Positions 1,484 to 34,125 of a stretch of 35,672 nucleotides of DNA are shown piece after piece. Origin of the DNA: Halobacteriales archaeon. GTDB lineage: Archaea > Halobacteriota > Halobacteria > Halobacteriales > Hikarchaeaceae. The position numbers and the translations under genes are program-made. Under the pieces are notes generated by a model. It saw only the letters and a list, made by a program, of their open reading frames with translations. It ran no database searches and was not told where the DNA came from. The first letter of the stretch is position 1, and every line of letters starts with the position of its first letter. The DNA is taken from positions 1-35,672 of the forward strand of contig JBDGPL010000130.1 of NCBI GenBank assembly GCA_042219705.1. The letters run 5' to 3'.

Positions 1484-1557
1484 GGGACCGGGGTCGACGG
1501 CCTCCGCGTGGCTCCGGTAGTCGAAAGCCCCTTTACCGGTCGCAGGGTAGCCCTCGT

Positions 1558-1867
1558 GCGGACTAGGCCGGGCGGTTAGGCCCCGCCCCGCGCCCGCAAT
1601 ACGGTCTTCAGCGGGGGCCGAACGCCGGGGGCGTCCGGGCCGACGGGCCCGGGCCCCGGGCGCCGACGTCGAAGCCTCGTCCGTCGGGGATGGCGGTCCG
1701 CGGCGCGCGACCGAAGGGCCGCGTCGTCGCGGTTAGCCGGCGGCACCGGGTCAGGCACGGAAGTGAGCAGCCCACCGCCGGACACCCGTCGCTCGACGGG
1801 TCGCGGGGTGGAGGAGGCAACCGGGACTACCCGGGCTCGAACGCCCGGGCCACCCCGGCCCGTCCGC
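1558..1867 (+). ncRNA. ffs: Signal recognition particle RNA (archaeal 7S RNA), about 310 nt
   Basis: The universally conserved helix-8 motif GGGUCAGG-CAC-GGAA-GUG-AGCAGCCC lies at about 1748-1772, with a GNAR tetraloop and the SRP54-binding asymmetric loop. The 5' end GCGGAC.GGCCGGG (1558-) is complementary to the 3' end CCCGGCCCGUCCGC (-1867), closing the long rod. The length and GC-rich helices fit archaeal SRP RNA, and the region lacks a credible CDS. Confidence 0.85.
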
Positions 1868-1893
1868 GCTCTTCACCCGCGCAGCCGCGGCGC

Positions 1894-2763
1894 TCAATCG
1901 GCGCCCGCGAGTCCCGAACCCTCGGCGAGTGCCACGCTTCCCGAGAGGTCCCGCTGGGGGAACGGAATGCTGATGTCGGCCTCGTCGAACCGGCGCTTGA
2001 CCTCCTGGACGTACTCCGAGCGGATGCGCACGAAGTCGGACCGGCCTGGGTCGGCGATCCAGATGCGGGCCTGCAGGCCGACGTAGGAGTCGGCGAGTTC
2101 GGTCAGCCGGACCGAGGGCGCCGGGTCGTCGAGGATCTCGTCGTGGTCCTCGGCGGCCTCGACGACGATCTCGCTGGCCGCCGCGACGTCGTCGTCGTAG
2201 TCGATGCCGAAGAGGAACTTCAGCCGGAGCGTGTCCTTCGCGACGGGGTTCTTGATGACGCCGTCGGTGAGCTGGGAGTTCGGTACGGTCAGGAGCTCGT
2301 TGTCGAAGGTCCGGACCCGGGTCACCCGGAGGCTGATGTCCTCGACGACGCCGGAATGGCCGTCCCACTCGATCCAGTCGCCGATGCGGAACGGCCGGTC
2401 GGTGTAAATGAAGACGCCGGCGACGAAGTTCTTGATGACGTCCTGCATGGCGAAGCCGATCGCCAGCGTCGCCGCCGCGGCGATGGTCGCCAGCGAGGTG
2501 AGGAAGTTCCCGTAGTCGGCGAAGCCGAAGGCGACCGCGATGCCGACGAACGCGATGACGATGGCGAGCAGCCGCGACAGCGGCTTCCGAGCGTGGTCGT
2601 CGAGCCCGCGTCGCTCCATGGCCCGGTCGGCCAGCGGCCTGACGACGACCCGGCCGACGAGCCAGACCGCCACGAAGGCGACCACGAAGTACAGCGCCTG
2701 GGTGACGGCCAGCGCGTAGGCCGCCGGCAGCGCGTCGACGAGGACCGGCAGCGGCTCGACCAT
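1894..2763 (-). CDS. Mechanosensitive ion channel, MscS family
   Basis: 289 aa with N-terminal TM helices followed by the MscS beta-domain signature (QDVIKNFVAGVFIYTDRPFRIGDWIEWDGHSGVVEDISLRVTRVRTFDNELLTVPNSQL). Confidence 0.9.
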   Translation of the reverse strand: MVEPLPVLVDALPAAYALAVTQALYFVVAFVAVWLVGRVVVRPLADRAMERRGLDDHARKPLSRLLAIVIAFVGIAVAFGFADYGNFLTSLATIAAAATLAIGFAMQDVIKNFVAGVFIYTDRPFRIGDWIEWDGHSGVVEDISLRVTRVRTFDNELLTVPNSQLTDGVIKNPVAKDTLRLKFLFGIDYDDDVAAASEIVVEAAEDHDEILDDPAPSVRLTELADSYVGLQARIWIADPGRSDFVRIRSEYVQEVKRRFDEADISIPFPQRDLSGSVALAEGSGLAGAD

Positions 2764-3008
2764 CAGTGGAACACCGCCGTGTGTCCGCGGGTCTCGACGA
2801 GGGTCGCCCCGACCCGGTCGGCGAGCGCCTCGGCCTGGGCCTCCGTCGAGGCGTCCGGGGCGCGCGCCGAGAGGAACTTCACCTTCACGAGCTCGCGGTC
2901 GTCGAGCTGGGCCGCCAGCTCGTCGGCGACCGCCTCGATGCCGCCCTTGCCGACCCAGACGGTGACGTCGAGGTCGTGGGCGCGCTTGCGGAGCTCCTGG
3001 ACGTCCAT
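2763..3008 (-). CDS. YhbY/CRM-domain RNA-binding protein
   Basis: The real start is the internal ATG (complement of 3006-3008): MDVQELRKRAHDLDVTVWVGKGGIEAVADELAAQLDDRELVKVKF.. This matches the YhbY-like CRS1 fold pattern (GK.G motif). The upstream part of ORF 2763..3371 is Arg-rich artefact. The stop overlaps the MscS start (TGATG). Confidence 0.8.
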   Translation of the reverse strand: MDVQELRKRAHDLDVTVWVGKGGIEAVADELAAQLDDRELVKVKFLSARAPDASTEAQAEALADRVGATLVETRGHTAVFH

Positions 3009-3082
3009 GGCTGGCCCGGGTATACCGCCCGGCGGATAAAGGGGCTGTGGTCGGGTCGGGCGCCAGCCGCGGCGCCGGACCG

Positions 3083-3472
3083 CTACTGGGCCACCACGTG
3101 GGCCGGCTCGACCCGGATGACGACGCGGGTGACGTCGTCGAACTGGTCCGCGAAGTTCTCGACGCCCCGGTAGGCCCGCCCGAGCTCGTTGGCGTGCTCG
3201 ACGGCCCCCTCGGTGGTCACCTCGGCCGGCCCGGAGACGGAGAGATAGCGGCCGACGTCGTCGGGGTCGATGACGTTGATGCCGGCGTGGGGGTTCGCCC
3301 GAACGTTCTTCGCCTTCCGGCGCTCCGCGACGGTGTTGACGAGGACGTGCTCGCCGTCGTAGTCGACCCACGTCACCGTCTGGTGGGGCGTGCCGTCCGG
3401 CCGGATGGTGGCGACCGTGGCGACGTTGGGCGCCCCGAGCAGGTCGTGGTGGCTGGCGGGTATCCCGGCCAT
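3083..3472 (-). CDS. Pyridoxamine 5'-phosphate oxidase family (PPOX-class, probably F420/FMN-binding) protein
   Basis: 129 aa: LLGAPNVATVATIRPDGTPHQTVTWVDYDGEHVLVNTVAERRKAKNVRANPHAGINVIDPDD. This is the typical PPOX split-barrel pattern. Confidence 0.8.
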   Translation of the reverse strand: MAGIPASHHDLLGAPNVATVATIRPDGTPHQTVTWVDYDGEHVLVNTVAERRKAKNVRANPHAGINVIDPDDVGRYLSVSGPAEVTTEGAVEHANELGRAYRGVENFADQFDDVTRVVIRVEPAHVVAQ

Positions 3473-3523
3473 GTGACCCCCTCCCGGGGCCCGACCAAAG
3501 GGGCTTCGATGGCCGGCGTCCAG

Positions 3524-3802
3524 TCAGTCGTAGGGGTAGCGCTGCTGGTGGCCGCAGTCACACGTGACCACGACGTGGCCGTCCTGCAGCCGGTGGCGGG
3601 CGTTCCGGCCGACGACGAGGTAGCGGTCGCAGGCGTCGCAGGTGTGCCGCGTCAGCGCCCGGGGCCGGGACAGCCGGTGGCGTTCCGCGATCCGCCGGGC
3701 GCGGCGGACGTACCGGCGGGCGCGCTCCTCCTCGCCCGCGAGGGTCGCCTCGCGGGCGAGCTCGGTCAGTCGCTCGACGCGTTCGGCGGCGGTGGCGGCC
3801 AT
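3524..3802 (-). CDS. rnp4: Ribonuclease P protein component 4 (Rpp21/Rpr2 family)
   Basis: Internal ATG (complement of 3800-3802): MAATAAERVERLTELAREATLAGEEERARRYVRRARRIAERHRL..TRHTCDACDRYLVVGRNARHRLQDGHVVVTCDCGHQQRYPY. It has the N-terminal helical hairpin plus the C-terminal Cys4-type zinc ribbon of Rpr2. The rest of the 306-aa ORF is artefact. Confidence 0.85.
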   Translation of the reverse strand: MAATAAERVERLTELAREATLAGEEERARRYVRRARRIAERHRLSRPRALTRHTCDACDRYLVVGRNARHRLQDGHVVVTCDCGHQQRYPYD

Positions 3803-4042
3803 GGCCCTGGCGGCTGGAATCTGACCGGAGTACCGCGGTGGGCGGGGTAAAGGGTTGCCCCTCGAGCGGGGTGACGGACACGTCACCGTCGCGTTACGGT
3901 CCAGCGTCGTTCGCCGTCCCGATGCCTCGAAGCGAGGTCGACCGCGGCGGTGGTCGTAGGCCAGGAGTCCCATGGGCTGAAATCGGGCTGAGCCGTCGGC
4001 CGGTCCGGGGCCCGTTCTCCGACGCCGCGGGCCGGAGGTATG

Positions 4043-4048
4043 TTTAAC
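4043..4048 (+). promoter_or_regulatory. Candidate TATA box (GTTTAA) for the mttB-like gene
   Basis: An AT-rich hexamer in otherwise roughly 70% GC DNA lies 32-37 nt upstream of the ATG at 4080, which implies a very short leader. It is followed by the imperfect palindrome CCGCCGTACGGGCGG at 4056-4070. Confidence 0.45.
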
Positions 4049-4079
4049 TGCTGAACCGCCGTACGGGCGGCTATCGTTC

Positions 4080-5543
4080 ATGAGTCTCGACGTCGACCTC
4101 TCCAGCCAGGCCACGCCGTTCATCGACCGACTCGACGCGGACGGCGTCGAGGCCATCCACGAGGCGTCGATGGTCATCATCGAGGAGTACGGCATCCAGG
4201 TCAACCACGAGGATGCCCTCGAGTACTTCGAGGCGGCCGGGGCGACCGTCGGCGAGGACAACCTCGTGCGGGCCGACCGCTCGCTCGTCGAGGACAAGGT
4301 CGCGGAGGCGCCGTCGTCGTTCCTGCTGCACGCCCGCAATCCGGACAACGACCTGCGCGTCGGTGACGGTGACACCTTCCGGGCGCCCGGGTACGGCGCC
4401 CCGAACGTCCGGACCTTCGAGGACGGCCGGCGGAGCTCGACCATCGAGGACTACGAGCTGTTCATGAAGCTGGCCCAGACGGAGGCCCCGATCAACGCCA
4501 CTGGCTACACGGCCGCCGAGCCCAACGACGTCCCCCAGGAGGTCAAACACGTCGAGATGGTCAAGCGGTCGCTCGAGCTGACCGACCTCCCGGTGATGGT
4601 CTCGCCGTACGGCCGTGACCGGACCGACGCGAACCTCGAGATGGTCGGGCTGGCGGTCGGTGACCCCGAGCTCTCGAAACCGTACGCGATGGGGCTGATC
4701 AACACGGTGCCGCCCCGGACGCTGGACACCAAGATGACCGGCGGCCTGGTGGGCCTGGCCGAGCGGGGTCAAGTCCCGGTGGTCTCCTCGTTCATCCAGG
4801 CCGGCGCCTCCGGGCCCGGAACGATGGCCGGCGCGCTCGCGCTGGCGAACGCCGAGAACCTCCTGGGCATCACCCTGGTCCAGCTGGTCAACCCGGGCAA
4901 CCCGGCGGTCTACGGCGTGCCGTCGTCGAACATCGACATGCGCTACGGGTCGCTGTCGATCGGCAGCCCGGAGTCGGCGCTGTTCGCTAGCTTCGCGGGC
5001 ACGATGGGCCGCCACTACGGCGTGCCCTCGCGGGGCGGCGGCGGGCTGACCGACGCCAAGACGGTTGACTACCAGGCTGGCTTCGAGTCGACGCTCGTCA
5101 GCGCCGCGACGACCTGGAGCGGCGTCGACGTGATGCTCCACGCCGCCGGCATCCTCGAGTCCTACTCGACCATCTCCCCGGAGAAGTTCGTGCTCGACTG
5201 CGAGCTGCTGCGGTACCTCGACCGGTTCCAGGCCGGCTACGACATCAACGAGGAGACGCTCGCGCTCGACCTCATCGGCGAGATCGACCCCGACGACCAC
5301 TTCCTCTCCGAATCGCACACGCTGCAGTGGGCCGGCGAGGCCTTCATGATCCCCGAGGTCGTGGACAAGCGCTCCCACGGCGACTGGCGGGACGACGGCG
5401 AGATGACGGCCTTCGAGATCGGTCACCACCGCGTCCAAGAGCAGCTCGACGCCTACGAGCGGCCGGCGCTCGACGCCGACGTCCAGGCCGACCTCGACGC
5501 GTTGGCCGAGGCGCAGCGGGCCGAGATTCTCGACGGCGACTGA
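4080..5543 (+). CDS. mttB: MttB-superfamily (trimethylamine methyltransferase family) substrate:corrinoid methyltransferase, non-pyrrolysine type
   Basis: 487 aa, the full length expected for MttB-family TIM-barrel proteins. Family-typical blocks are present (EEYGIQV.HEDALEYF..AGA, APGYGAPNV, GLINTVPPR, SSFIQAGASGPGTMAGALALANAE, ESTLVSAATTWSGVDVMLHAAGILES). The frame is uninterrupted with no in-frame TAG. Confidence 0.85.
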   Translation: MSLDVDLSSQATPFIDRLDADGVEAIHEASMVIIEEYGIQVNHEDALEYFEAAGATVGEDNLVRADRSLVEDKVAEAPSSFLLHARNPDNDLRVGDGDTFRAPGYGAPNVRTFEDGRRSSTIEDYELFMKLAQTEAPINATGYTAAEPNDVPQEVKHVEMVKRSLELTDLPVMVSPYGRDRTDANLEMVGLAVGDPELSKPYAMGLINTVPPRTLDTKMTGGLVGLAERGQVPVVSSFIQAGASGPGTMAGALALANAENLLGITLVQLVNPGNPAVYGVPSSNIDMRYGSLSIGSPESALFASFAGTMGRHYGVPSRGGGGLTDAKTVDYQAGFESTLVSAATTWSGVDVMLHAAGILESYSTISPEKFVLDCELLRYLDRFQAGYDINEETLALDLIGEIDPDDHFLSESHTLQWAGEAFMIPEVVDKRSHGDWRDDGEMTAFEIGHHRVQEQLDAYERPALDADVQADLDALAEAQRAEILDGD

Positions 5544-5573
5544 GTGACGGCCGGAGCGTGACGGCTCCGGGCC

Positions 5574-6575
5574 TCAGTCCTCGGCGTCGAGGGCGGCCTC
5601 GACCTCGCGGACGGCCGTCGCGAGGTTCCCCACCTTCTCGTAGGCGGCCTTCCGTGGGAGCGGCTTCATGCCGCAGTCGGGCGTCAGGGTCAGCCGCTCG
5701 GCCGGGACGTGTTCGAGCGCGGTCTCGACCCTGGCGCGTATCTCCCCGACGGGGTCGACCCGCTTCGCCTGGGTGTCCACCACGCCGAACCCGACGTCGA
5801 GGTCGAGGTCGCGGCCGCCGAAGACGTCGGCCGGTTCGTCGGCGTCGTCGCTGGCGAACTCGAGGTCGACCTCGTCCACGGGGAACTCGAACAGGTCGGG
5901 CACCAGGTGCTGGTAGTTCCCCGAGCAGATGTGGACGCCCAGCCGGACGGTCTCGGGGACGGCCGCGTCGATGCGGGCGAGGCACTCCTGGGCGATGGTC
6001 CCGTGGGGCGACATGCCGAGGGCGGGCTCGTCGATCTGGATCCAGTCGGCGCCGGCGTCGGCCAACCGGCCGGCCTCGGCGGCCACCAGGTCCGCGAAGT
6101 CGTAGGCCAGCGCCTCGACGTCGTCGTAGGCCTCGAGGCTCCCGAACGACGCCAGGGTGAACGGGCCCGTGACGGTCGTCTTGACCGGGCGGTCGGCGAC
6201 CGCCTGGGCGAAGCGCTGGTCGTCGACCAGCCACGGCGCGTCCGATGAAACCGTGTCGGTCACGGTGGGCATCCGGGCGTTCCACCCCGTGCCGCCGTCC
6301 CGGTCGTAACCGTGGATGAACGGCGCGAAGTGCCCGACCATGTCCGTCCGGCGCTGCTCGCCGTCGGTGACGACGTCGAGGCCGGCCCGCTGCTGGTCGC
6401 CGATGGAGGCCTTGCAGGCGTCGTCCTCGGCCTCCTCGAGGTCGACCTCGTCGTCATCGGCGGCCAGCTCGCGAACGCGGTCGAGCCAGGCCGGCTGGGG
6501 GAAGCTCCCCACGACCGTCGCGAGCAGGAACGACGCGTGGGGGTGGTCCGGCGGCCGGAACCGGTCGTGGGGCAT
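5574..6575 (-). CDS. metE: Cobalamin-independent methionine synthase catalytic-domain homologue (core MetE-like, 333 aa)
   Basis: Internal ATG (complement of 6573-6575): MPHDRF..LLATVVGSFPQPAWL..DVVTDGEQRRTDMVGHF..VTGPFTL..WIQIDEPALG..LGVHICSGNY..LTPDCGMKP. The H-x-C and C-terminal Cys zinc-ligand pattern and the IDEPA motif are typical of the MetE C-terminal domain. The 109 upstream codons of ORF 5574..6902 are Arg/Pro-rich artefact. Confidence 0.85.
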   Translation of the reverse strand: MPHDRFRPPDHPHASFLLATVVGSFPQPAWLDRVRELAADDDEVDLEEAEDDACKASIGDQQRAGLDVVTDGEQRRTDMVGHFAPFIHGYDRDGGTGWNARMPTVTDTVSSDAPWLVDDQRFAQAVADRPVKTTVTGPFTLASFGSLEAYDDVEALAYDFADLVAAEAGRLADAGADWIQIDEPALGMSPHGTIAQECLARIDAAVPETVRLGVHICSGNYQHLVPDLFEFPVDEVDLEFASDDADEPADVFGGRDLDLDVGFGVVDTQAKRVDPVGEIRARVETALEHVPAERLTLTPDCGMKPLPRKAAYEKVGNLATAVREVEAALDAED

Positions 6576-6756
6576 CGTTGGCTGCTCGTCGTCCGCCGGG
6601 GAGGGAATAGCTTCCGCCCGCCGCCCCGGGGGTCGGACGCCGGCCATCTCGGGGGCGGGACACTGGAGGCCGCTGCCGGCGGGGCCCGGCCGACCCTCGG
6701 TATCCTTTTGGCGCCCCCTGGCAAACCCGGTCCGGTATGTGCCGCCGGGGGCCGGA

Positions 6757-8691
6757 ATGACGGACGAGACGTCGGTGCGGTTCCAGCCTTCCGAGCGGGC
6801 GGTCTCGGCCGCCCCCGGGACGACCCTGCTCGAGGCCGCCCGGGACGCCGGCCTCCGCATCGAGAGCCTCTGTGGTGGCGAGGGGCTCTGTGGAACCTGC
6901 AAGGTCGTGGTCGAGGCAGGGGCCGACTACCTGACGCCGCCGAGCCCGGCCGACGAGGAGCTGTTCGCCGAGGACCAGCTCGCCGAGGGCTACCGGCTGT
7001 CGTGCCGGGCGGCCGTCGACCGGCCCGACGGCGAGATCGCGATCACGATCCCGAGCTCGTCGATGGAGACGGGCGGCGTGGTGCTCACCGAGGGGGTCGA
7101 GCGCGACGTCGAGCTCGACCCCGCCATCAGGCACTACCGGCTCGAGCTCCCGCCGCCGTCCCTCGACGACCACCTCGCGGACCGCGAGCGGCTCCTGGCG
7201 GGCCTCACCGACGCCTACGGCCTCGACGTCACGCGGGTGGACCGGCTGGTCCAGCAGGAGCTGCCGAACCGGCTCAGGGAGCACGCGTCTCCCGACGGGC
7301 TGGCCGTGACGGCCACGGTCTACGACGGCGAGGAGGTCATCGACGTCTCGCCGGGGCTCGACGAGGCGGTCTACGGCCTGGCCATCGACGTCGGCACGAC
7401 GACGGTCGCCGTCTACCTGCTCGACCTCCGGAGCGGCGAGCGGCTCGCGGTCAGCTCGCGGCTGAACCCGCAGCACCGCTTCGGCGGCGACATCATGACC
7501 CGGATGCGGTACACCCGCCGCAACGCGGGCGGCCGCGAGGAGCTCCAGGCGGCCATCCTCGACGGGGTGAACGGGGCCATCGAGGAGGTCACCCGCGAGG
7601 CCGGCGTCGACCCCGACGACGTCTACGAGGCCGTCTGCGTCGGCAACACCGCGATGCACCACCTGTTCCTCGGCATCGAGCCCTCCTCCGTCGCCGGCTC
7701 GCCGTACGTACCGGCCAACCACGCCGCGCTGCAGGTCAAGGCCCGCGAGCTGGGCCTCGAGGTGAACCCCGCGGGATACGTCTCCTGGCTCCCCGTCAGC
7801 GGCGGCTGGGTCGGTCCGGACCACGTGGCGGTGCTGCTCGCCTCGGGCCATTACCGGCGCGATGAGCTCACGGTCTGCATCGACATCGGCACGAACGGCG
7901 AGATCTCCGTCGGCAACCGCGACGGGGTGTGGGTGACCTCCGCGCCGGCGGGGCCGGCCCTCGAGGGCGCCGAGATCACCCACGGCATGCGCGCGCAGGA
8001 CGGCGCCATCGACGCCGTCGACATCGATCCACAGACGTTCCAGCCGACCGTCGAGACCATCGGGGGTGGCCCGCCCAAGGGGCTCTGTGGCTCCGGCGTC
8101 ATCGACGCGCTCGCCGAACTGTTCGAAGTCGGCCTCGTGGACCGGCGGGGGCTGTTCCGGGAGGCCGTCCGACCCCACGAGCGGCTCCGCCGGGGCGAGG
8201 ACGACGTCTGGGAGTACGTTCTCGTGACCGCCGACGCGGCCGAGGACGATCAGGACATCGTCCTCACCCAGCACGATCTCCGGGAAATCCAGATGGCGAA
8301 GGCCGCCATCCAGGCGGGGACGCTCGTGCTGCTCGACGAGCTCGGCGTCGACGAGGTCGACCGGGTCGTCCTGGCCGGCGCGTTCGGGAACTACATCGAC
8401 CTCGAGTCCGCGTTGACCATCGGCCTCTATCCGGACGTCGACCCGACGTCGGTGGAGTTCCTCGGGAACGCGGCCGGGAGCGGCGCCCAGCTCGCGCTGT
8501 TGGACCGGGCGAAACGGGCGGAGGCCGACGCCATCGTCGACCAGGTCGACTACTACGAGATCGCCGGCACCGACGTGTTCCGGGACCACTTCATGGACGC
8601 GATGTACCTGCCCCACCGGAATTTCGAGCGCTATCCGCGGGTGAAGGCCCGCCTCGAGGCGCTCCGGCGCTTCGACGACGTGCCCACGTGA
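6757..8691 (+). CDS. Reductive activator of corrinoid enzymes (RACo/RamA-like): N-terminal plant-type [2Fe-2S] ferredoxin domain plus ASKHA ATPase domain
   Basis: Start at the ATG at 6757 (MTDETSVRFQPSERAVSAAPGTTLLEAARDAGLRIESLCGGEGLCGTCKV..YRLSCRA), giving a C-x4-C-x2-C...C 2Fe-2S motif. Downstream are ASKHA phosphate motifs (GLAIDVGTTTVAVYL, CIDIGTNGEISVG) and GLCGSGVIDA. The 147 upstream codons of ORF 6316..8691 overlap the metE-like gene and are artefact. Confidence 0.85.
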   Translation: MTDETSVRFQPSERAVSAAPGTTLLEAARDAGLRIESLCGGEGLCGTCKVVVEAGADYLTPPSPADEELFAEDQLAEGYRLSCRAAVDRPDGEIAITIPSSSMETGGVVLTEGVERDVELDPAIRHYRLELPPPSLDDHLADRERLLAGLTDAYGLDVTRVDRLVQQELPNRLREHASPDGLAVTATVYDGEEVIDVSPGLDEAVYGLAIDVGTTTVAVYLLDLRSGERLAVSSRLNPQHRFGGDIMTRMRYTRRNAGGREELQAAILDGVNGAIEEVTREAGVDPDDVYEAVCVGNTAMHHLFLGIEPSSVAGSPYVPANHAALQVKARELGLEVNPAGYVSWLPVSGGWVGPDHVAVLLASGHYRRDELTVCIDIGTNGEISVGNRDGVWVTSAPAGPALEGAEITHGMRAQDGAIDAVDIDPQTFQPTVETIGGGPPKGLCGSGVIDALAELFEVGLVDRRGLFREAVRPHERLRRGEDDVWEYVLVTADAAEDDQDIVLTQHDLREIQMAKAAIQAGTLVLLDELGVDEVDRVVLAGAFGNYIDLESALTIGLYPDVDPTSVEFLGNAAGSGAQLALLDRAKRAEADAIVDQVDYYEIAGTDVFRDHFMDAMYLPHRNFERYPRVKARLEALRRFDDVPT

Positions 8692-8860
8692 GTCGAACGC
8701 CGCCCGCGGGCCCGGCGCCGAACCAGACCGCGTCGGCGAGCGCGACGACCGTGGGCGCCGTGACCCCCGGCGCCTGTGGCTCGGGGACCTCCCGAAGCGC
8801 CGAAACGGTCCGCGGCCTCCGGCCGACCCAACGCGTCGAGTCGGGGAACGGGTCCCGTCC

Positions 8861-9775
8861 TCACCCCTTCCGGAAGATGCGGTACAGCGGGTGGTCCGAT
8901 GGCGGCCGCCGGTTCTCCCCCATCTGGGCCGCGTACCCGACGTAGGCGTCGGCCAGCGACGTGACTTCGTACATCCGGTCCGCGTCGTGGAGCGGACCGT
9001 AGAGGTTGAAGTCGGCGCCGGCGAAGGTGACGACGGCGTTCGCGACGGCCTGGCGGAGGAGCCGCGAGTCCTCGCTCAGCGGGTCGGTCAGCTCCCACCG
9101 AATGACCTCGTTGTGCGGCGAACAGCCCGCGGGCAAGCCGTAGCGGTCCTTGATCTCGTAGATGGCCTTCGCGACGAACCCGGAGTCGGGGATGTCGATG
9201 ACGGCCGGATCGACGATGACCTTCTCGACGCCGGCCGCCTCGGCCATCTCGAGGTTCTTCTCGAGGGCGTCGAACCGGCCCTGAAGGGTGAGGTTGCCGG
9301 TGTCGATGCTGAGCAGGACCGCCGCCTCGATTCCCGCGTCGGCCATCGCGTCGATCTCCATCTGGGCTTGCTTCGTACTCGACTCGATGGAGTTGTAGAT
9401 GACCCGGTCCTGCAGGCCGATTTCGCCGACGTGTCGGGCGGCCTCGGCCCGGATGGTGGGCGTCGGGCCGTCCATGAACAGCGGGAGGTCGCAGACCTCG
9501 GCCACGAAGTCGACGTGCTTGATGAGCGCCTCCGGGCTGTCGCCGATGACGTCCAGGACCGCCGGGTTGCCCGTCCGTTCGGAGACGGCCTCGACCTGGC
9601 GGATGGCCTCCTCCGCGGCTGCCTCGTCGAACTCGCCGGTCTGCGGGTCCTCGAGCACCCGGTCGCCCTTGTAGAAGAGGCTCCCGACCATGACGGTCGG
9701 GTGCTCGCCGGGCTGGCCGCCGAATTTGACGCCCGCCACCTCGTGGACCTCCTGCTCCGCCTCGAACGTGAACAC
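8861..9775 (-). CDS. mtrH: MtrH-family methyltransferase (tetrahydromethanopterin S-methyltransferase subunit H homologue; probable methylcorrinoid:pterin methyltransferase)
   Basis: FTFEAEQEVHEVAGVKFGGQPGEHPTVMVGSLFY..LFMDGPTP..VIYNSI..IVDPAVIDIP is the characteristic MtrH N-terminal and core pattern. The preferred start is the GTG at complement 9773-9775, which gives the family-typical MFTFE... N-terminus and sits 27 nt from a TATA-like CTTATA. The longest ORF extends to 9844. Confidence 0.8.
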   Translation of the reverse strand: MFTFEAEQEVHEVAGVKFGGQPGEHPTVMVGSLFYKGDRVLEDPQTGEFDEAAAEEAIRQVEAVSERTGNPAVLDVIGDSPEALIKHVDFVAEVCDLPLFMDGPTPTIRAEAARHVGEIGLQDRVIYNSIESSTKQAQMEIDAMADAGIEAAVLLSIDTGNLTLQGRFDALEKNLEMAEAAGVEKVIVDPAVIDIPDSGFVAKAIYEIKDRYGLPAGCSPHNEVIRWELTDPLSEDSRLLRQAVANAVVTFAGADFNLYGPLHDADRMYEVTSLADAYVGYAAQMGENRRPPSDHPLYRIFRKG

Positions 9776-9801
9776 GGCCGCCAATACGCCCGAGTTCGAG
9801 G

Positions 9802-9807
9802 TATAAG
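9802..9807 (-). promoter_or_regulatory. Candidate TATA box (CTTATA on the minus strand) for the mtrH-like gene
   Basis: TATAAG on the plus strand lies 27 nt upstream of the proposed GTG start at 9775, which fits a leaderless transcript. Confidence 0.45.
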
Positions 9808-9968
9808 TTTCCGTTCGCCGGTCCCGTCCTCGGGTCGGCGTCACGACGGCGGTGACCAGCTCGGCATCCGTCGAAACCGGCCGACCCGGCCGCCGACATC
9901 GTCCCTCACGGCGGGCAGCAATACTTATCCGGTTGACACGGCAACCAATACGGTGGTGAACGCTCCAA

Positions 9969-10700
9969 ATGGCTGACGACGAGCAGGACGATTATCTCGA
10001 CCAGGCCGAGGACCGGGCCGCCGACGTGGACGACCCGCTCCTGCTCGACATCCAGCAGGCCATCGTTGACCTGGACGAGGACCGCACCGAGGAGCTGACA
10101 CTGCGGGCCATCGACGAGGGGTACAATCCGGTCGACATTCTCGAGGACGGGCTGACCAAAGGCGTGAAGACCGTTGGCGACCGGTTCGGCCGGGGAGAGG
10201 TCTTCCTCCCCGAGCTGGCCATGGCCGCCGACTGCATGCAGGCCGGCGTCCAGCACGTCGACCCGTTGCTGGCGGAGATGGACCTCGGCGACGAGAAGTC
10301 CGGCGTGATGGTCATCGGCACCGTCGACGAGGACATCCACAACATCGGGAAGAACATCCTCGTCACGATGTTGAAGGCCAATGGCTTCGACGTCGTCGAC
10401 CTCGGGGTCGAGGTCCCCAACGAGGCGTTCGTCGAGGCGGTCGAGGAGCACGAGCCCGACATCCTCGGCATGTCGGCGCTGATGACGATGACGATGGACC
10501 ACCAGGAGGAGGTCATCGAGCTCCTCGAGGAGCACGGCCTCCGCGAGCAGGTCAAGGTCATGGTCGGCGGCGCGCCGACGTCGCCGGAGTGGCGCGACGA
10601 GATCGGCGCGGACGGCTACGGCGACAACGCCAGCTCCGCGGTCACCGAGGCGACGCGCCTGCTCGAGGAGCACCGGGCCGAACGACGGCAGCGCACCTGA
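9969..10700 (+). CDS. Methyltransferase cognate corrinoid protein (B12-binding cap domain plus Rossmann B12-binding domain; MtbC/MttC/MtgC-like)
   Basis: 243 aa. The helical cap (AIDEGYNPVDILEDGLTKGVKTVGDRFGRGEVFLPELAMAADCMQAG) is followed by VMVIGTVDEDIHNIGKNILVTMLKANGFDVVDLG, which carries the DxHxxG His-on cobalamin-ligand motif, then ILGMSALMT and VKVMVGGAP. There is an unusually acidic N-terminal extension. Confidence 0.9.
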   Translation: MADDEQDDYLDQAEDRAADVDDPLLLDIQQAIVDLDEDRTEELTLRAIDEGYNPVDILEDGLTKGVKTVGDRFGRGEVFLPELAMAADCMQAGVQHVDPLLAEMDLGDEKSGVMVIGTVDEDIHNIGKNILVTMLKANGFDVVDLGVEVPNEAFVEAVEEHEPDILGMSALMTMTMDHQEEVIELLEEHGLREQVKVMVGGAPTSPEWRDEIGADGYGDNASSAVTEATRLLEEHRAERRQRT

Positions 10701-11906: not shown

Positions 11907-12716
11907 ATGGACGTCGGGCGGTATCTCGACCGCATCGGGGCCGAGTGGCCGGCCGCGGCGTCGCCGACGCTCGACCGCCTCGCGACCCTGCAGCGTCGCC
12001 ACGTGCTGTCGGTGCCCTTCGAGAACCTGGACATCGTCGCCGGCCGGCCCATCCCGCTCGATCGAGCGGCCTATTACGGGAAGGTCATCGAGCGGGGCCG
12101 CGGCGGGTTCTGCTATGAGCTCAACGGGCTCTTCGCGTGGCTGCTCGACGCGCTGGGGTTCGACGTCCGGCTCGTCGAGGGCCGGGTGCTCGAGGACCAC
12201 GGCTTCACCCCGCGGTTCGCCCACGCGGCGGTCCTCGTCGACCTGGGAGCCGACGGGCCGCCGTCGTCACGGTCGGGGTGGCACCTCGCCGACGTCGGGT
12301 TCGGCCGGTTCGCTCGCCGGCCCCTGCCGCTGACCGGCGAGCCCCGGCGCGACGTCGAGGGGACCTACCGGGTCCGGCCCCTCGACGACGCCGGGTTCGA
12401 GGCGCAGCGCCGGTCGGACGACGGCTGGACGGCGGCCTACCAGTTCACGCCCGACGCCCGGGTCCTCGGGGATTTCGAGGACGGCCTCGCGTGGAACGTG
12501 ACCTCGCCGGACTCCGCGTTCACCGGTCGGGTGCTCTGTACGCAGGCGACCGAATCGGGTCGGGTCACCCTCTCGACCCGCGGCCTGACGATCACCGAGG
12601 ACGGCGAGAGGGCCACCCGCGAGGTGGCTCCCGACGAACGGGCCGCGGTGCTCGAGGCGGCGTTCGGCCTCGACGTCGAGGGCCCGCTGTGGCTGCCCGA
12701 CGAGCGGCCGGCGTAG
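11907..12716 (+). CDS. Arylamine N-acetyltransferase (NAT) family protein
   Basis: Internal ATG at 11907: MDVGRYLDRIG..LATLQRRHVLSVPFENLDI..RGRGGFCYELNGLF..FAHAAVLV..WHLADVGFG. The Cys-His-Asp triad context (GGFCYELN, H..LV, ADVGFG) is typical of NATs. The upstream 165 codons of ORF 11412..12716 overlap the GT4 gene in another frame. Confidence 0.8.
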   Translation: MDVGRYLDRIGAEWPAAASPTLDRLATLQRRHVLSVPFENLDIVAGRPIPLDRAAYYGKVIERGRGGFCYELNGLFAWLLDALGFDVRLVEGRVLEDHGFTPRFAHAAVLVDLGADGPPSSRSGWHLADVGFGRFARRPLPLTGEPRRDVEGTYRVRPLDDAGFEAQRRSDDGWTAAYQFTPDARVLGDFEDGLAWNVTSPDSAFTGRVLCTQATESGRVTLSTRGLTITEDGERATREVAPDERAAVLEAAFGLDVEGPLWLPDERPA

Positions 12717-29685: not shown

Positions 29686-31239
29686 CTACCGCCAGTCCGC
29701 GAACGTGCCCTCGATGAGCGTCCCGGCCTGGCGGGCGACGTAGGTCCGCTGCATGCCGGTGATGGCGGCTTCGAGGTCCGCCCCGTCGTCGATCCGCTCG
29801 CGGACCCGGTCGCGCTTCCAGTCGGCCGGGGTCAGCCGGTCCGTGACCCGCTGGCGGAGCGGCCCGAGGTAGCGCTCCGACTCGGCGGCGTCGAGCCCCC
29901 GCCGGGCGAGGCCGCGCCGCGCGGTCTCGAGGAGGTCCTTGTAGAGCTCGTCGGTGTCCGTCGTCCGGTCCCCGTCCGCGGTCACCCACTCGAGGTCGGC
30001 CCCGAGGCCGTCCTCGGCGGCGGCGTAGAGGTTGGCCTCGGCCGTCTCCCAGGCGAGCTCCCGGAGCGGGTGGTCCGACGCGTAGCACTCCTCGAGCAGG
30101 CCGGCGTAGACGGCGAGGAAGGCGAGGCTGTCGCGCACCGTCGGCTGGGCCGGGAGCGGTCGGAACTCGATCCGGGCGTGGGCCGTCGACCGGGACTCGC
30201 CCTCGAACACCGGCCGGACCCACCGCCAGAAGGAGCCGTGTTTGTGGGCGAAGTGGCGGAACGCGTCGTCGAATCGGCCTTGCTCCTCGAGCCACTGGGG
30301 AACGATGGTCTCGTCGGCGGCGATGAGGTCGACGGCGGCCTCGACCGAGTCGACGTCGGGCGGCAGGCAGACTTTCTCGGCCCGTGCGTCGGGGTTCATC
30401 GTCTGCTCGAAGACGGCCAGCCGGTTCTCGAGCCTGGCGTCGGCGAGCACGGTCGCGGCGTCCACGCCGTCGTCGTAGAGGTCCGGAGGGAAGAAGGGCG
30501 AGTTGACACCGAGGGCCAGCACCGGGCCGGCGACCCGGAGGGCGTACCGGAAGTACTCGGGAAGGTCCGGCGCGTGGGGGACCTGATAGTGGGGCTGGAT
30601 GGACGTGATGAGGCTCTCGGGCATCACGGTGTCGGCCGACAGGGAGACGTGGGGGGCATCGATCTCGAGGCCGACGCCGAGATCCGAGTTGGCCATCGCG
30701 TGGTACCGCACCGACTCGGACATGTTCGGCGCGAGGTGGACTCCGTCGACCTCGACGCTCTCGGTGAGGTAGTCCCGGGCCCGTTCGCCGGTCGGCGGGA
30801 CGGTCCACAGCCCGTCGGAGACGAGCCGGATGCCCTCGGGCCGGGTCTTGTCGAGCGCGGCGGACAGCCTGGCCTGGACCTCGGCCTCCTGGGCGGTGAG
30901 GCCGTACGCCGAGAGGGGCTGCGGGTTCGTGTTCATCTCGGCGTTGTGGAGGCCGAGCTCCTGCTCGAACCCGATGAGCTCGAGCAGCAGCCGGGGGACC
31001 CGGACCAGCGGAACGTTCGGCTCGGCGGCGGGGTCGACGTCCGCCGGCTCCGCGACGCCGTAGAACTCGTACTCGAAGCCGACGTTCGCCTGGGGGTTGT
31101 CGAACGCCCCGGCCCGCAGCCGCTCCTTCAGCTCCTCGGCCTCCCGTTGGACGCGAGTGTCGAACTCATCCCGGTCGACGTCGGTCGCGTCGGCCACCCG
31201 GCCGGCCAGGTCAGCAGTCATCGGCGGCCCGTTCGACAC
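29686..31239 (-). CDS. Glutamate-cysteine ligase family 2 (GCS2)-like carboxylate-amine ligase
   Basis: About 510 aa: GFEYEFY, ELGLHNAEMNTNP, SIQPHYQVP and ARIEFRPLPAQPT resemble the GCS2/YbdK-type ligase fold. GTG start at 31239 or ATG at 31221. It begins 9-27 nt after the stop of the upstream membrane-protein gene. Confidence 0.55.
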   Translation of the reverse strand: MSNGPPMTADLAGRVADATDVDRDEFDTRVQREAEELKERLRAGAFDNPQANVGFEYEFYGVAEPADVDPAAEPNVPLVRVPRLLLELIGFEQELGLHNAEMNTNPQPLSAYGLTAQEAEVQARLSAALDKTRPEGIRLVSDGLWTVPPTGERARDYLTESVEVDGVHLAPNMSESVRYHAMANSDLGVGLEIDAPHVSLSADTVMPESLITSIQPHYQVPHAPDLPEYFRYALRVAGPVLALGVNSPFFPPDLYDDGVDAATVLADARLENRLAVFEQTMNPDARAEKVCLPPDVDSVEAAVDLIAADETIVPQWLEEQGRFDDAFRHFAHKHGSFWRWVRPVFEGESRSTAHARIEFRPLPAQPTVRDSLAFLAVYAGLLEECYASDHPLRELAWETAEANLYAAAEDGLGADLEWVTADGDRTTDTDELYKDLLETARRGLARRGLDAAESERYLGPLRQRVTDRLTPADWKRDRVRERIDDGADLEAAITGMQRTYVARQAGTLIEGTFADWR

Positions 31240-31247: not shown

Positions 31248-32702
31248 TTAACTTGCGGGGCCACCCGTCCCGCCGATGACCCCGAATCGCAGGGCGAGTC
31301 CGGCGGCGACGGCCACGACGCCGAGGGCGACCACAACGCCGGACTGGACGAACACGGCGTCGGTCACCTGGCCAGCCAGCGCCAGCCCGAGGTCCGCCAC
31401 GGCCGGCGGGGCGTCACCGCTGAGCAGCACCGTCCGGAGCCGGGCGGGGAGCAGGGCGGCGCCGACGAGGCCGGGGAGGCCGCCGAGCACCAGTCCGACG
31501 CCGGCGCCGACGGCGGTGACGGCGACCGACCGGGAGGCGAGGTAGACCAGCCCGATGAGGAGGAGCGCGAGCAGCGGGAGCCCGATGGCGAGCCAGTCGA
31601 TGAGGACGACCGTCCGCCGGGCCTGCTCGAGGTTCTCCATCGCCGTCTGGTCGAGCTGCTCGTCGAGGTCGACCCGGTCGGGCGCCTGCTCGTCCAACCG
31701 GGTTTCGATCACGGTGGCGAGGCCCGCGGCGAGGTCGTCCGCCGCGGCCTGGAAGTCCGCCCGGTACGCCTCGTACGTGGTGTCGGCGAGGTAGCCGTCG
31801 ACCGCCACGAGCACGAGGTCGGCCATCGGCCGGGCGATTGCCGGGTCGGCGTCCCCAAGCGACTCGTTGAGCCGGTTCGCGACGTCGGTCCGGACCGATT
31901 CGCGCATGGCCGCCAACCGGTCGTCGACGGCGTCGGCGAGGCGGCCGTCGTCAGCGCTCTCGATTCGCTCGCGGATGGCCGCCCGGATCTCGGGCTCCCG
32001 CTCCTCGACCATCCTCGCCTTCTCGGCCTCGGTGTAGTCCGACGGGTCGTAGTCGTCGATGACCAGGGCGAGCCGCTCGTCATCCGTCGCGTTCCGGAAC
32101 GCCCGGTCGACGAGTCGGTCCAGGACCCGCTCGCGGATGTCGGCCCGGAACGCGGCGCGTTCGGACCGGAAGACGGAGGCGTTCTCGGCCATCCGGGCGG
32201 CCGTGACGAGGTCGATGGTGACGCCGTTCCGCTCGAGCGTCAGCTCCCGCCCGTCGCCCCCGACGACCCCGACGAGTTCGGTGGGCGACGCGTTCGCTAG
32301 CTCGGCCTCGACCGCGTCGGCGACGGCGCCCTTCACGGGCTCGAGGTCGACGGCGAGCTGCAGCTCGTCGGCGTTCCCGTGGAGGTAGGCGAGCGCCCGC
32401 TCGATGTTGGGTTCGACCTGGGACTCGAGGTAAGCGGGGTCGAGGGCGGCGCCGGCGACCGCATCGGGGTCGACCGGAAGCGGCGGGGACCCGCCGTCGG
32501 TCGACCCGAGCTCGCCCAGGGGGAACGACTCGACGACGAGCGGTTCCGCCTGGCTGTAGGCGTTCTCCTCCTCGAGCGTCGTGGTGACGAACCCGGGATT
32601 CAGGACGGTCCGGTCGGCGGCGACGAGGGCGTTCGCGGCGGCGAGGTCGACCGCCAGCAGGGCGACCAGCAGGACGATTGCGGCGGACCGGACGACACCC
32701 AT
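31248..32702 (-). CDS. Large membrane protein (N-terminal TM, about 330-aa acidic extracytoplasmic helical region, C-terminal multi-TM bundle), function unknown
   Basis: 484 aa with an N-terminal anchor (AAIVLLVALLAVDLAAA) and C-terminal hydrophobic helices (LIDWLAIGLPLLALLLIGLVYL, VGAGVGLVLGGLPGLVGAALL, VVALGVVAVAAGLAL). Confidence 0.65.
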   Translation of the reverse strand: MGVVRSAAIVLLVALLAVDLAAANALVAADRTVLNPGFVTTTLEEENAYSQAEPLVVESFPLGELGSTDGGSPPLPVDPDAVAGAALDPAYLESQVEPNIERALAYLHGNADELQLAVDLEPVKGAVADAVEAELANASPTELVGVVGGDGRELTLERNGVTIDLVTAARMAENASVFRSERAAFRADIRERVLDRLVDRAFRNATDDERLALVIDDYDPSDYTEAEKARMVEEREPEIRAAIRERIESADDGRLADAVDDRLAAMRESVRTDVANRLNESLGDADPAIARPMADLVLVAVDGYLADTTYEAYRADFQAAADDLAAGLATVIETRLDEQAPDRVDLDEQLDQTAMENLEQARRTVVLIDWLAIGLPLLALLLIGLVYLASRSVAVTAVGAGVGLVLGGLPGLVGAALLPARLRTVLLSGDAPPAVADLGLALAGQVTDAVFVQSGVVVALGVVAVAAGLALRFGVIGGTGGPAS

Positions 32703-32798
32703 ACCCGCGGTTCAGACTTCCAGGGGTCCTATCACCTTCGGTGTCGGGTCCGGCCGGTCACCGCCGGCGGCCGTCCGTGGGAAGCGGCACTTCCGCCG

Positions 32799-32975
32799 TT
32801 ACATGATGGAACGCTCGGCCTCGCGCTCGACGGAGATGTTGACGAGGGCGACCAGGTTGGGATACGGGACGAAGGCCAGCAGCTCGTCATCCTCGGTGTA
32901 GAGCTCGACGCCGTTCTCCCGTTCCGCGTAGTCAGCGGCGGTCAAGTCGCCGTCGGGCAGGATGGCTCGGAACAT
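32799..32975 (-). CDS. Small acidic protein, 58 aa (below the ORF-track size cutoff)
   Basis: Hand translation: MFRAILPDGDLTAADYAERENGVELYTEDDELLAFVPYPNLVALVNISVEREAERSIM, ending in TAA. It has acidic haloarchaeal composition and GC-rich third positions. The ATG faces the AT-rich promoter island. Confidence 0.55.
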   Translation of the reverse strand: MFRAILPDGDLTAADYAERENGVELYTEDDELLAFVPYPNLVALVNISVEREAERSIM

Positions 32976-33111
32976 CGTTACATCCTACGGAACCGCCAGC
33001 CTTCAAGCTGTCACCTCCGGTTCGAAACCTTTCTATAAGTTATGAAGATGAGTTTAGAAAACAGTATAACACCATTGGATGTGTTGGACAGACGAGATTG
33101 GAGTAATTTTT

Positions 33112-33396
33112 ATGGCGTTCCAGCCCGCTAGGACCACCCGAGAGGTGACAGGGATGTCCCGGACCGGTGCAACCACCCACGGCCTGTTCGGTCGCGTCGC
33201 CCGTCGGACGTCGCGCCACGACCTGGTGCTCGTCGTCATCCCGGCCGCGTTCGTCGCCGCCCTCATGGCGGGCATGGCGTCGCCCGTGTCGCTCCACGGC
33301 GCGGTCGCGGCCGCCTCGGTCGTGGGCGGGATCGCGCTGGTCGACGCCCTGTTCCTCAACCCCCCGACCGGGCCTCCCGCGCCGCCCGCGGCCTGA
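33112..33396 (+). CDS. Small two-TM membrane protein, function unknown
   Basis: MAFQPARTTREVTGMSRTGATTHGLFGRVARRTSRHDLVLVVIPAAFVAALMAGMASPVSLHGAVAAASVVGGIALVDALFL. Alternative starts are at 33079 and 33154. It lies downstream of the AT-rich promoter region. Confidence 0.55.
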   Translation: MAFQPARTTREVTGMSRTGATTHGLFGRVARRTSRHDLVLVVIPAAFVAALMAGMASPVSLHGAVAAASVVGGIALVDALFLNPPTGPPAPPAA

Positions 33397-33528
33397 CACC
33401 ACCGTTCTGACCGTTTGTCGCACGAACGACGATGTACTGGCTCGTCCCGACTGTTCGGTTGGCTCGTGTCCCTATGTCGCGGTAATTGTTGGTTCCAAGC
33501 CACCGGCTCCTTCGTCCGGGTGGTGTCA

Positions 33529-33900: not shown

Positions 33901-33963
33901 GCGACCGCCGGTACCGGCGTTCCGCCACGTGTCGAACCGTCCCCCGCCCCGCCAGCGGCCTGC

Positions 33964-34125
33964 TCATGGCCAGCCGTCCGCGTCGGGAAGCGGCTCGGCG
34001 ACGACCCCGTCCTGCTGGGCCAGGGCTCGGGCGTGGCCGGCACAGACCGCCCGGTCGTCGGCCCAGGGGACGTAGAGCCGGACGGCCGCCGGCTTCTGGC
34101 AACCCGGCTCGGTACACGTCGGCAT
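33964..34125 (-). CDS. Small Cys/His-containing protein, 53 aa (below the ORF-track size cutoff)
   Basis: Hand translation: MPTCTEPGCQKPAAVRLYVPWADDRAVCAGHARALAQQDGVVAEPLPDADGWP, ending in TGA. The C-x4-C...C-x2-H spacing suggests a small zinc-binding fold. It is convergent with the hsp20 remnant. Confidence 0.45.
   Translation of the reverse strand: MPTCTEPGCQKPAAVRLYVPWADDRAVCAGHARALAQQDGVVAEPLPDADGWP

Follow-up and report, generated by a model that had tools for sequence, protein, structure and literature searches.

Can a halophilic archaeon strip a methyl group from glycine betaine by means of a corrinoid protein, and to which acceptor would that group be passed? The question is raised by five consecutive genes in a Halobacteriales archaeon of the Hikarchaeaceae (assembly GCA_042219705.1, contig JBDGPL010000130.1, positions 1 to 35,672); this whole stretch of 35,672 nucleotides is called the window below. 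The genes encode an MttB-like methyltransferase, a MetE-like protein, a RACo-type activator, an MtrH-like methyltransferase and a B12-binding corrinoid protein. They almost certainly form a corrinoid methyltransferase system. Taken as a whole, we read them, with reasonable though far from full confidence, as a methyl relay on the corrinoid protein that would run from glycine betaine to folate or to homocysteine, the latter acceptor giving methionine.

Glycine betaine is a major compatible solute of hypersaline systems, and its consumption by haloarchaea, which is poorly documented, bears on carbon and nitrogen flow in brines. A corrinoid route, as opposed to an oxygenase, would run with or without oxygen, would couple betaine turnover to B12 supply and would send one-carbon units into folate oxidation. 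MtgBCA systems have been characterised in anaerobic bacteria and in a methanogen. A close functional precedent in aerobic marine bacteria has been available since 2025 (PMC12478193). The first-pass annotation of this locus held that no such system had been characterised in Halobacteria, and full-text searches of the literature turned up no paper on MttB/MtgB-type systems of Halobacteria or on their use of betaine through corrinoids. The genes are nevertheless not rare. A survey of MttB homologues with one genome per GTDB species placed about 30 of the best 80 loci in haloarchaea (loci are numbered, as in L001), and databases already label proteins of many haloarchaea as 'trimethylamine methyltransferase family' and 'methionine synthase'. 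Systems of this kind are already known from bacteria and methanogens, and the present one is an archaeal variant of them.

The five-gene cluster

Third-codon-position GC was used to pick the true reading frames in this high-GC window (about 73%, range 0.67-0.77), and the five cluster open reading frames (ORFs) have third-position GC of 0.93-0.95. Window proteins were searched against Pfam and NCBIfam profiles, structural relatives were sought among solved structures, and RNAs were scanned for at Rfam gathering thresholds. All five products matched strongly to the families that the first-pass annotation had named, at the positions and on the strands it had assigned (Table 1). Its view of a three-component system with an added activase was borne out by the family matches and by the nearest structures, which are MtgB, a methylcorrinoid:tetrahydrofolate methyltransferase, MttC and RACo.

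The MttB-like protein scored 457 bits against PF06253 (MTTB, cut-off 25) over residues 10-482 of 487. The MtgB structures of Desulfitobacterium hafniense (2QNE and 9YCE) matched it with 378 bits and 42% identity. In the betaine pocket of MtgB, as defined in 2026 by structure and mutagenesis, Y97 and F356 make cation-pi contacts while R312 and H348 grip the carboxylate (PMC13080624). The equivalent residues of the window protein are Y105, R318, H354 and Y362, the sole change being F356 to Tyr, and the F356Y variant of MtgB showed wild-type kinetics (PMC13080624, Table 1). Judged by these four positions, the window protein carries the glycine betaine signature. About 94 of 119 haloarchaeal homologues have the quartet, with Tyr or Phe at the last position.

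The MetE-like protein matched PF01717 (Meth_synt_2) with 165 bits. Its 333-residue product equals an NCBI-annotated protein (100% identity and coverage), so the start of the frame 5574-6575 was accepted and a longer upstream ORF was regarded as spurious. Homologues of this protein split in two: clade A (n = 71) is 56-100% identical to the window protein, and clade B (n = 47), which comes from ordinary haloarchaea and comprises the housekeeping split MetE, is 47-51% identical to it. No member of one clade is more than 55% identical to a member of the other.

For the activator, all four Pfam domains of RACo were over cut-off. The structure of RACo from Carboxydothermus hydrogenoformans (3ZYY) aligned over its full length (415 bits, residues 4-629), and the two proteins share the four-domain architecture and the [2Fe-2S] cysteines, which here are C39, C45, C48 and C83 in the pattern C-x5-C-x2-C-x34-C. 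Because the alignment begins at residue 4, the start at 6757 is right and that of the longest ORF spurious. The protein reached 108 bits against the RamA model TIGR04270 (cut-off 500); it would work like RamA, yet is of the RACo type. These assignments agree with the start codons that the first-pass annotation had chosen for MetE and RACo, and a TATA-like box described below agrees with its choice for MtrH.

The MtrH-like protein scored 257 bits against PF02007 and 284.1 against the MtrH-family model NF002142, slightly under the cut-off of 287. Its best solved relative is a methylcorrinoid:tetrahydrofolate methyltransferase (6SJ8; 211 bits, residues 2-301), and by sequence the tetrahydrofolate (THF) enzyme and the methanogen MtrH match about equally. 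MTHFR, FTHFS and FolD genes adjoin in relatives and folate use is established in Halobacteria, so THF is, by analogy, the likely partner. The corrinoid protein contains B12-binding_2 (PF02607) and B12-binding (PF02310) domains and scored 233 bits against TIGR02370, over the cut-off of 215.3. The DxHxxG motif reported in the first-pass annotation is DIHNIG at residues 122-127; it aligns to GDIHSIG of MttC, whose structure (7XCN_M, 188 bits) is the best solved match.

Table 1. Genes of the cluster and putative promoter regions in the window
Feature	Position	Strand	Basis
MttB-superfamily methyltransferase, non-pyrrolysine, MtgB type; predicted glycine betaine:corrinoid-protein Co-methyltransferase (MT1)	4080..5543	+	PF06253
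Stand-alone core-MetE (clade A), zinc homocysteine S-methyltransferase; predicted methyl-corrinoid-protein:homocysteine methyltransferase	5574..6575	-	PF01717
RACo-type ATP-dependent reductive activator of corrinoid proteins; N-terminal [2Fe-2S] domain and ASKHA ATPase	6757..8691	+	Fer2, RACo_linker, Raco_middle, RACo_C_ter
MtrH/MtgA-family methyl-corrinoid:pterin methyltransferase (MT2), THF predicted partner, direction either way	8861..9775	-	PF02007
Corrinoid (B12-binding) carrier protein, MttC/MtgC type	9969..10700	+	PF02607, PF02310, TIGR02370
Region upstream of MttB-like gene, divergent from RNase P Rpr2-like gene; TATA-like GTTTAAC box at ~4042-4050	3803..4079		sequence; putative promoter
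Divergent promoter region, core-MetE / RACo	6576..6756		AT-rich GGAATAGCTTCC and GGTATCCTTTTG, kept in L001
Divergent promoter region, MtrH-like / corrinoid protein	9776..9968		AGCAATACTTATCCGG, kept in L001

Proposed methyl relay

In the proposed relay, RACo would, as its homology suggests, use ATP and its [2Fe-2S] cluster to bring the corrinoid protein from Co(II) to Co(I). The MtgB-like enzyme would then bind glycine betaine, with Y105 and Y362 in cation-pi contact and R318 and H354 holding the carboxylate; the residues are seen and the activity is predicted. Co(I) would take one N-methyl group, leaving a methyl-Co(III) protein and dimethylglycine. From there the MtrH/MtgA-like protein could hand the methyl group to THF, for oxidation or assimilation, or the zinc-activated homocysteine thiolate in core-MetE could take it to give methionine. 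MtrH-type enzymes are reversible, and because of this the same parts might also convert methyl-THF to methionine with the help of B12: with the flow reversed, the MtrH-like protein, the corrinoid protein, core-MetE and RACo would together act as a B12-dependent methionine synthase of four proteins, supplied with methyl-THF. In function the relay would be a haloarchaeal analogue of the MtgBCDE system of Ruegeria, built partly from non-homologous parts.

We put forward only tentatively, as something short of probable, that clade A core-MetE, an MttC/MtgC-type corrinoid protein, the MtrH-like protein and RACo constitute an unrecognised cobalamin-dependent methionine synthase of Halobacteria, charged from methyl-THF or, without passing through folate, directly from glycine betaine via MtgB.

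Gene neighbourhoods in related genomes

The closest named relatives of the MttB-like protein are from Halodesulfurarchaeum metagenome-assembled genomes (MAGs), with 74-76% identity. Homologues of cultured Halocatena, Halomicrococcus, Halopenitus and Halobacterium are 50-60% identical, and beyond haloarchaea the nearest relatives are mostly from Chloroflexota (34-38%). In 22 of the 30 haloarchaeal loci the MttB-like gene has an FTHFS gene nearby (range L002-L030), mostly directly downstream (for example at 11598 in L011, 11739 in L018 and 11760 in L025), and many of these loci also contain BCCT transporters, GCV_T and DAO pairs and FDH-like molybdopterin oxidoreductases. The pairing of MttB with FTHFS is far more conserved than the linkage of MttB to a corrinoid protein or MT2. 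In one Halodesulfurarchaeum MAG the genes run FDH-like, MttB, FTHFS, FDH-like, RACo, MtrH and MTHFR, which by gene content is a predicted methyl-THF oxidation route; Halodesulfurarchaeum is an anaerobic sulfur respirer. On account of such neighbour genes in relatives, betaine imported by BCCT transporters is proposed as the substrate and THF as the acceptor.

Clade A MetE genes have neighbourhoods of their own. The MetE gene adjoins an MttB-like gene in the window and in L001, L009, L010, L089, L091 and L171. It adjoins RACo, MtrH and corrinoid-protein genes, with or without a DUF1638 gene after RACo, in L001, L169 and L171, and RACo, DUF1638 and corrinoid-protein genes in L010. In L171 the full set belongs to the same string of genes as a DAO-FAO_M-GCV_T dimethylglycine-dehydrogenase-like gene and the gene for a Cys/Met pyridoxal-phosphate (PLP) enzyme. 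A DUF1638 gene follows RACo in L001 (7232-7990, between RACo and MtrH), L002, L010, L087, L169 and L171. It is found in most haloarchaeal relatives, as in the Ruegeria and Phaeobacter system, and is absent from the window, where 170 bp separate RACo from MtrH. DUF1638 together with RamA is predicted to permit reductive recharging of cobalamin (Mausz et al.).

These contexts bear on an alternative that overlaps with the relay and differs from it in emphasis. The module could be chiefly a split B12-dependent methionine synthase, in which the MtrH-like protein would charge the corrinoid protein from methyl-THF, core-MetE would hand the methyl group on to homocysteine and RACo would restore the cofactor; the MttB-like protein would be an interchangeable accessory donor. 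In L169 the MetE, RACo, MtrH and corrinoid proteins are 73-85% identical to those of the window and no MttB gene lies within 10 kb. In L171 identity is 66-76% for these four proteins and only 50% for the MttB partner. It follows that MetE, RACo, MtrH and corrinoid protein make up the conserved core and that MT1 is exchangeable. The alternative is also favoured by L087, in which genes for cobalamin biosynthesis are clustered next to clade A MetE and RACo, DUF1638 and FolD follow 4-9 kb downstream, by the Cys/Met-metabolism PLP enzyme of L171 and by the Ruegeria and Phaeobacter precedent. Because the conserved core has a variable MttB partner, the module may serve B12-dependent methionine synthesis no less than catabolic demethylation. 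On the other hand, an MttB-like gene stands directly beside clade A MetE on seven independent contigs, and in Halodesulfurarchaeum RACo and MtrH occur with MttB and one-carbon oxidation genes, not with MetE. We consider methionine synthesis as the chief function somewhat unlikely, though it survives best among the alternatives.

L169 also contains, at 1762-4588 and beside its MetE-RACo-DUF1638-MtrH-corrinoid-protein genes, a Rieske/Ring_hydroxyl_A and Ring_hydroxyl_B oxygenase, a Fer2 ferredoxin and a DAO-FAO_M-GCV_T protein. Oxygenase-type demethylation may be coupled to the same corrinoid/methionine module in that genome.

The MetE-like protein as a possible methyl acceptor

The MetE-like protein could also be an ordinary cobalamin-independent subunit acting on methyl-THF, with a partner possibly encoded elsewhere, which is present in the cluster through the methyl-THF of the MtrH-like enzyme or by chance. 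Its nearest relatives outside its own clade are split-MetE catalytic subunits (47-51% identity). The zinc ligands H215, C217, E239 and C301 (H618, C620, E642 and C704 of Thermotoga maritima) and the homocysteine-binding residues S24, E73 and D182 do not vary in either clade and are the same as in MetE. In addition, some clade members have no corrinoid genes nearby.

The two clades nevertheless differ at 16 clade-specific positions, which include the pterin-stacking Trp position and the flanks of the zinc-ligand Cys. Trp539 of T. maritima stacks on the folate pterin (PMC539065), and the equivalent position, F144 in the window protein, is Phe in 71 of 71 clade A members and Trp in 46 of 47 clade B members. 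A Phe could still stack the pterin. At residues 187-191, which include the equivalent of Glu583 (pterin hydrogen bond), the alignment is gapped, and a clade-specific Asp to His change at 191 is suggestive and was not counted. The gene contexts differ as well. The clade B gene overlaps a Meth_synt_1-type partner (L088 and L090), whereas no such partner was found beside clade A MetE in the window or in the listed neighbourhoods L084-L087 and L169-L171, and an adjacent partner gene occurs in 0 of about 12 clade A contexts. Adjacency to RACo, corrinoid-protein, MtrH, MttB or B12-biosynthesis genes recurs over 57-90% identity. An ordinary MetE function is unlikely on this evidence.

Against NF003317, the model for the split-MetE catalytic subunit (cut-off 406), the window protein scored 298 and other clade A members 312-329, while housekeeping haloarchaeal MetE proteins scored 534-539. 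These scores, the separation of the clades and the missing partner gene rule out that the window protein is the housekeeping split MetE itself. The MesD structure 3RPD reached 97 bits against it. A metagenome scan with the MetE-like protein returned mostly distant proteins (~33% identity) of non-halophiles, the informative loci being L089, L090 and L091.

The first-pass annotation had proposed MetE as a second methyl acceptor. This proposal gained support, because the protein belongs to a distinct stand-alone clade whose genes are found time and again together with those for RACo, MtrH, corrinoid proteins and MttB. That core-MetE accepts the methyl group from the corrinoid protein is, in our view, slightly favoured.

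Clade A MetE genes also occur between the B- and D-subunit genes of an A-type ATP synthase operon, in the same orientation (L084 10001-11056, L086 10001-11041 and L170 10001-11044). The genomes are those of Halodesulfurarchaeum sp. HSR-GB and Halobacteriaceae archaeon GCM10025711 and an ENA metagenome contig. This operon is an odd, conserved site for a methionine synthase.

Substrate of the MttB-like protein

The MttB superfamily has many specificities (PMC13080624; PMC12478193), and the methyl donor could be other than glycine betaine: proline or hydroxyproline betaine, beta-alanine betaine, carnitine, choline, dimethylglycine or DMSP. Identity to the characterised MtgB is just 42%, and haloarchaeal paralogues vary at the binding residues (YFHY, YRNY, GRHY and IRFY). 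The homologue in the H-GB strains, moreover, lies by hydroxyproline-type catabolic genes. The window protein, on the other hand, has the complete MtgB quartet, whereas the enzymes for carnitine, proline betaine, butyrobetaine and phosphocholine do not keep its aromatic pair (PMC13080624). MtgB, with the same pocket, refuses every other amine tried and scarcely uses proline betaine (PMC13080624). Relatives with the same quartet adjoin BCCT and dimethylglycine-dehydrogenase-like genes. Another donor is unlikely.

The first-pass annotation had named glycine betaine as a candidate, and the MtgB quartet together with the BCCT, dimethylglycine-dehydrogenase-like, FTHFS, MTHFR and FDH-like genes near homologues strengthens its case. 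Glycine betaine is thus the probable substrate.

In L081 (1-21464) and L082, from strains H-GB2-1 and H-GB1-1, the MttB homologue stands amid BCCT, three IclR, GCV_T, DAO, DHDPS-family, Pro_racemase, SSF and aldehyde dehydrogenase genes. These surroundings suggest hydroxyproline or proline-betaine-like catabolism, and a substrate other than glycine betaine, for that homologue.

A trimethylamine or methylamine system as in methanogens is highly improbable: databases name the protein 'trimethylamine methyltransferase family protein' and the best solved match of the corrinoid protein is MttC, but the ORF 4080-5543 is uninterrupted with no in-frame TAG, the MttB-like protein scores 306 against the pyrrolysine-MttB model TIGR02369 (cut-off 525) and 153 bits with the pyrrolysine-containing MttB structure 7XCL, as against 378 with MtgB, and it has the carboxylate-binding Arg/His pair. 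As the first-pass annotation had noted, no pyl-type match was found in the window; neither was a tRNA. A pyrrolysine system in the window was ruled out by the absence of the amber codon, the tRNA and pyl matches.

Evidence weighing against the relay

Several observations count against the relay from glycine betaine to folate or homocysteine. The first-pass annotation had called for a survey of the conservation of the five-gene neighbourhood; among representative genomes the exact order was found in L001 only (a Salar de Ascotan MAG; proteins 79-91% identical). Clade A MetE genes are not in every case close to corrinoid genes, three being located within the A-type ATPase operon and one being solitary, and the Phe at the Trp539 position of this clade is still aromatic, so that folate binding could persist. 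In the closest cultured homologue of the MttB-like protein (72% identity; Haloarculaceae archaeon H-GB1-1 and H-GB2-1), the residue equivalent to R312 is Phe (signature YFHY), and specificity has therefore diversified within the family.

Several models of the nearest characterised proteins did not reach their cut-offs. The RACo-like protein scored 471 bits against AcsV (cut-off 800), and the MtrH-like protein 247.5 against MtgA (NF047990, cut-off 550). The corrinoid protein scored 214 and 201 against the MtgC models NF047995 and NF047996 (cut-offs 310 and 370) and for this reason was not filed as an MtgC orthologue. Probing of the neighbour proteins found no betaine transporter, whether BCCT or other, no dimethylglycine or sarcosine enzymes, no FTHFS and no MTHFR in the window, in keeping with the earlier statement that it holds no transporter gene; the catabolic context is therefore borrowed from relatives. 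Finally, the haloarchaeal members are known from sequence alone.

Comparison with known systems

The MtgB/MtgC/MtgA system of D. hafniense (also in Acetobacterium, with MtgB/MtgC in Methanolobus vulcani) supplies the best structural homologues for the MT1 and MT2 of the window. It shares with the window a non-pyrrolysine MttB-family MT1 with the same betaine quartet, a DxHxxG corrinoid protein, an MtrH-family MT2 to THF and an ATP-dependent reductive activase. The window differs in its haloarchaeal host with an acidic proteome, in its moderate MT1 identity and subthreshold MtgA and MtgC scores, in an activase that is RACo-type, with an N-terminal [2Fe-2S] domain and a weak match to RamA, and in the core-MetE gene embedded in the cluster.

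In Ruegeria pomeroyi betaine catabolism and methionine synthesis both require the same corrinoid protein (PMC12478193). The MtgBCD(E) system of R. pomeroyi and Phaeobacter inhibens (PMC12478193) resembles the window in using one corrinoid protein for both roles, which is here proposed, and in having an MttB-family MtgB, a reversible methyl-THF methyltransferase, a separate homocysteine methyltransferase and a reductive activase. The modules themselves differ: the THF module is MtrH (PF02007) here and the pterin-binding MtgD there, and the homocysteine module is core-MetE (PF01717) here and the MetH/BHMT-type MtgE there. The host here is archaeal and the dual function is a prediction. By these family assignments, the window system is analogous to the Ruegeria-type MtgBCDE and not a member of it.

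Core-MetE enzymes of Dehalococcoides (MesB) and methanogens (MesA), together with MesC, likewise have about 330 residues, only the MetE catalytic barrel, the zinc motif HxC...E...C, the homocysteine residues, no folate-domain partner and a predicted methyl-corrinoid-protein donor (PMC7005905; PMC7857596). Core-MetE of Dehalococcoides and methanogens uses methylcobalamin in vitro, and a corrinoid protein was proposed as the physiological donor (PMC7005905; PMC7857596). The proposed donor here is an MttC/MtgC-type protein encoded next door, not CoFeSP or Mtr. In a comparison that covered sequences other than the reference Mes proteins, the window MetE is closest to the haloarchaeal split-MetE catalytic subunit (~50%). 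The split MetE of haloarchaea shares its fold, zinc and homocysteine residues and 47-51% identity, whereas the window protein scores 298 rather than ~535 bits, has no adjacent partner, shows the Trp to Phe change with 15 further clade changes, and lies in another neighbourhood. Price et al. 2021 assigned to Halobacteria split MetE only, plus MetE in Haloquadratum (PMC7857596); clade A would not have been separated there because one best catalytic-subunit match was kept per genome.

If the proposal is true, it would revise the view that Halobacteria make methionine through split MetE alone, and the locus would show archaea converging on an arrangement like the MtgBCDE hub of roseobacters. To our knowledge, the physiological corrinoid-protein donor of a core-MetE has never been pinned down. 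The distinct core-MetE clade described here is repeatedly encoded next to one particular corrinoid protein, the activase of that protein and a methyltransferase acting on methyl-THF. A core-MetE would then have, for the first time, a physiological corrinoid-protein partner that can be tested genetically. Some relatives seem to be in culture (strains H-GB1-1, H-GB2-1, HSR-GB and GCM10025711), and certain haloarchaea can be manipulated genetically, so the prediction could become testable in vivo. The names of several strains (Halodesulfurarchaeum sp. HSR-GB, Halalkaliarchaeum sp. AArc-GB, Natronococcus sp. A-GB1, H-GB1-1, H-GB2-1 and A-GB9) suggest betaine enrichments and hint at betaine-grown isolates with sequenced genomes, which is a lead and not evidence.

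Putative promoter regions of the cluster

The five genes run + - + - +, and the two divergent intergenic regions that the first-pass annotation had taken for promoter regions are present (Table 1). A divergent MetE/RACo pair is also found in L001, L169 and L171. AT-rich TATA-like elements lie ~30-55 bp upstream of the cluster start codons, and the GTTTAAC box before the MttB-like gene is kept with its flanks in L001. A TATA-like box at 9803-9812 falls inside the longest ORF of the MtrH-like gene, and for this reason the GTG at 9775 was preferred as its start.

The pattern GGTAT-N1-3-TTT has three matches in the window (4037-4045, 6699-6709 and 9800-9810), all in cluster promoter regions, with 0.09 expected. 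It was considered as a shared operator and rejected, because it was derived from the same sequences and is kept at one of three sites in L001; the sites are treated as ordinary AT-rich TATA-like boxes. The Rfam scan of the window for riboswitches or other RNA control gave the signal recognition particle (SRP) RNA alone.

Host and flanking genes

The acidic proteome, high GC and haloarchaeal flanks described earlier were all recovered: the five cluster proteins have isoelectric points of 4.1-4.5, and Rpr2, aTrm56, TFE-alpha, DUF5798, DUF5803 and an archaeal SRP RNA are encoded around them. MutS of the host is at best 62-67% identical to that of named haloarchaea, no named genus exceeding 67%, which points to a deep, uncultured lineage.

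The archaeal SRP RNA lies at 1556-1869 (+) and is full length (RF01857, 163 bits); a mechanical ORF at 1690-3039 that overlaps it is spurious. A PPOX-class oxidoreductase gene at 3083-3472 (-), which scored 105 bits against the F420-dependent model TIGR03618 (cut-off 79), lies ~600 bp upstream of the cluster with the Rpr2-like gene between. At ~11950-12716 (+) an arylamine N-acetyltransferase family protein (PF00797, 185 bits), of a family that is uncommon in archaea, is flanked by two GT4 glycosyltransferases.

Two neighbouring ORFs at 29686-31239 (-) and 31248-32702 (-), encoding 517 and 484 amino acids, have third-position GC of 0.94-0.96 and gave no Pfam or NCBIfam family match. Next to them, a stretch of ~1.9 kb (32700-34590) with a lower GC of 0.68 has no ORF of the high third-position GC typical of the other genes here and no Rfam match. 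It could be the remnant of a gene, DNA of foreign origin or an extended non-coding region. At 34596-35645 (-) there is a gene for a FixC-like FAD oxidoreductase with a FixX-like ferredoxin C-terminus fused to it, as in ETF:quinone oxidoreductases; it is probably cut by the contig end. Such an ETF:quinone-type acceptor is needed by ETF-linked enzymes, for example dimethylglycine dehydrogenase, and the gene is a candidate connection to the cluster only.

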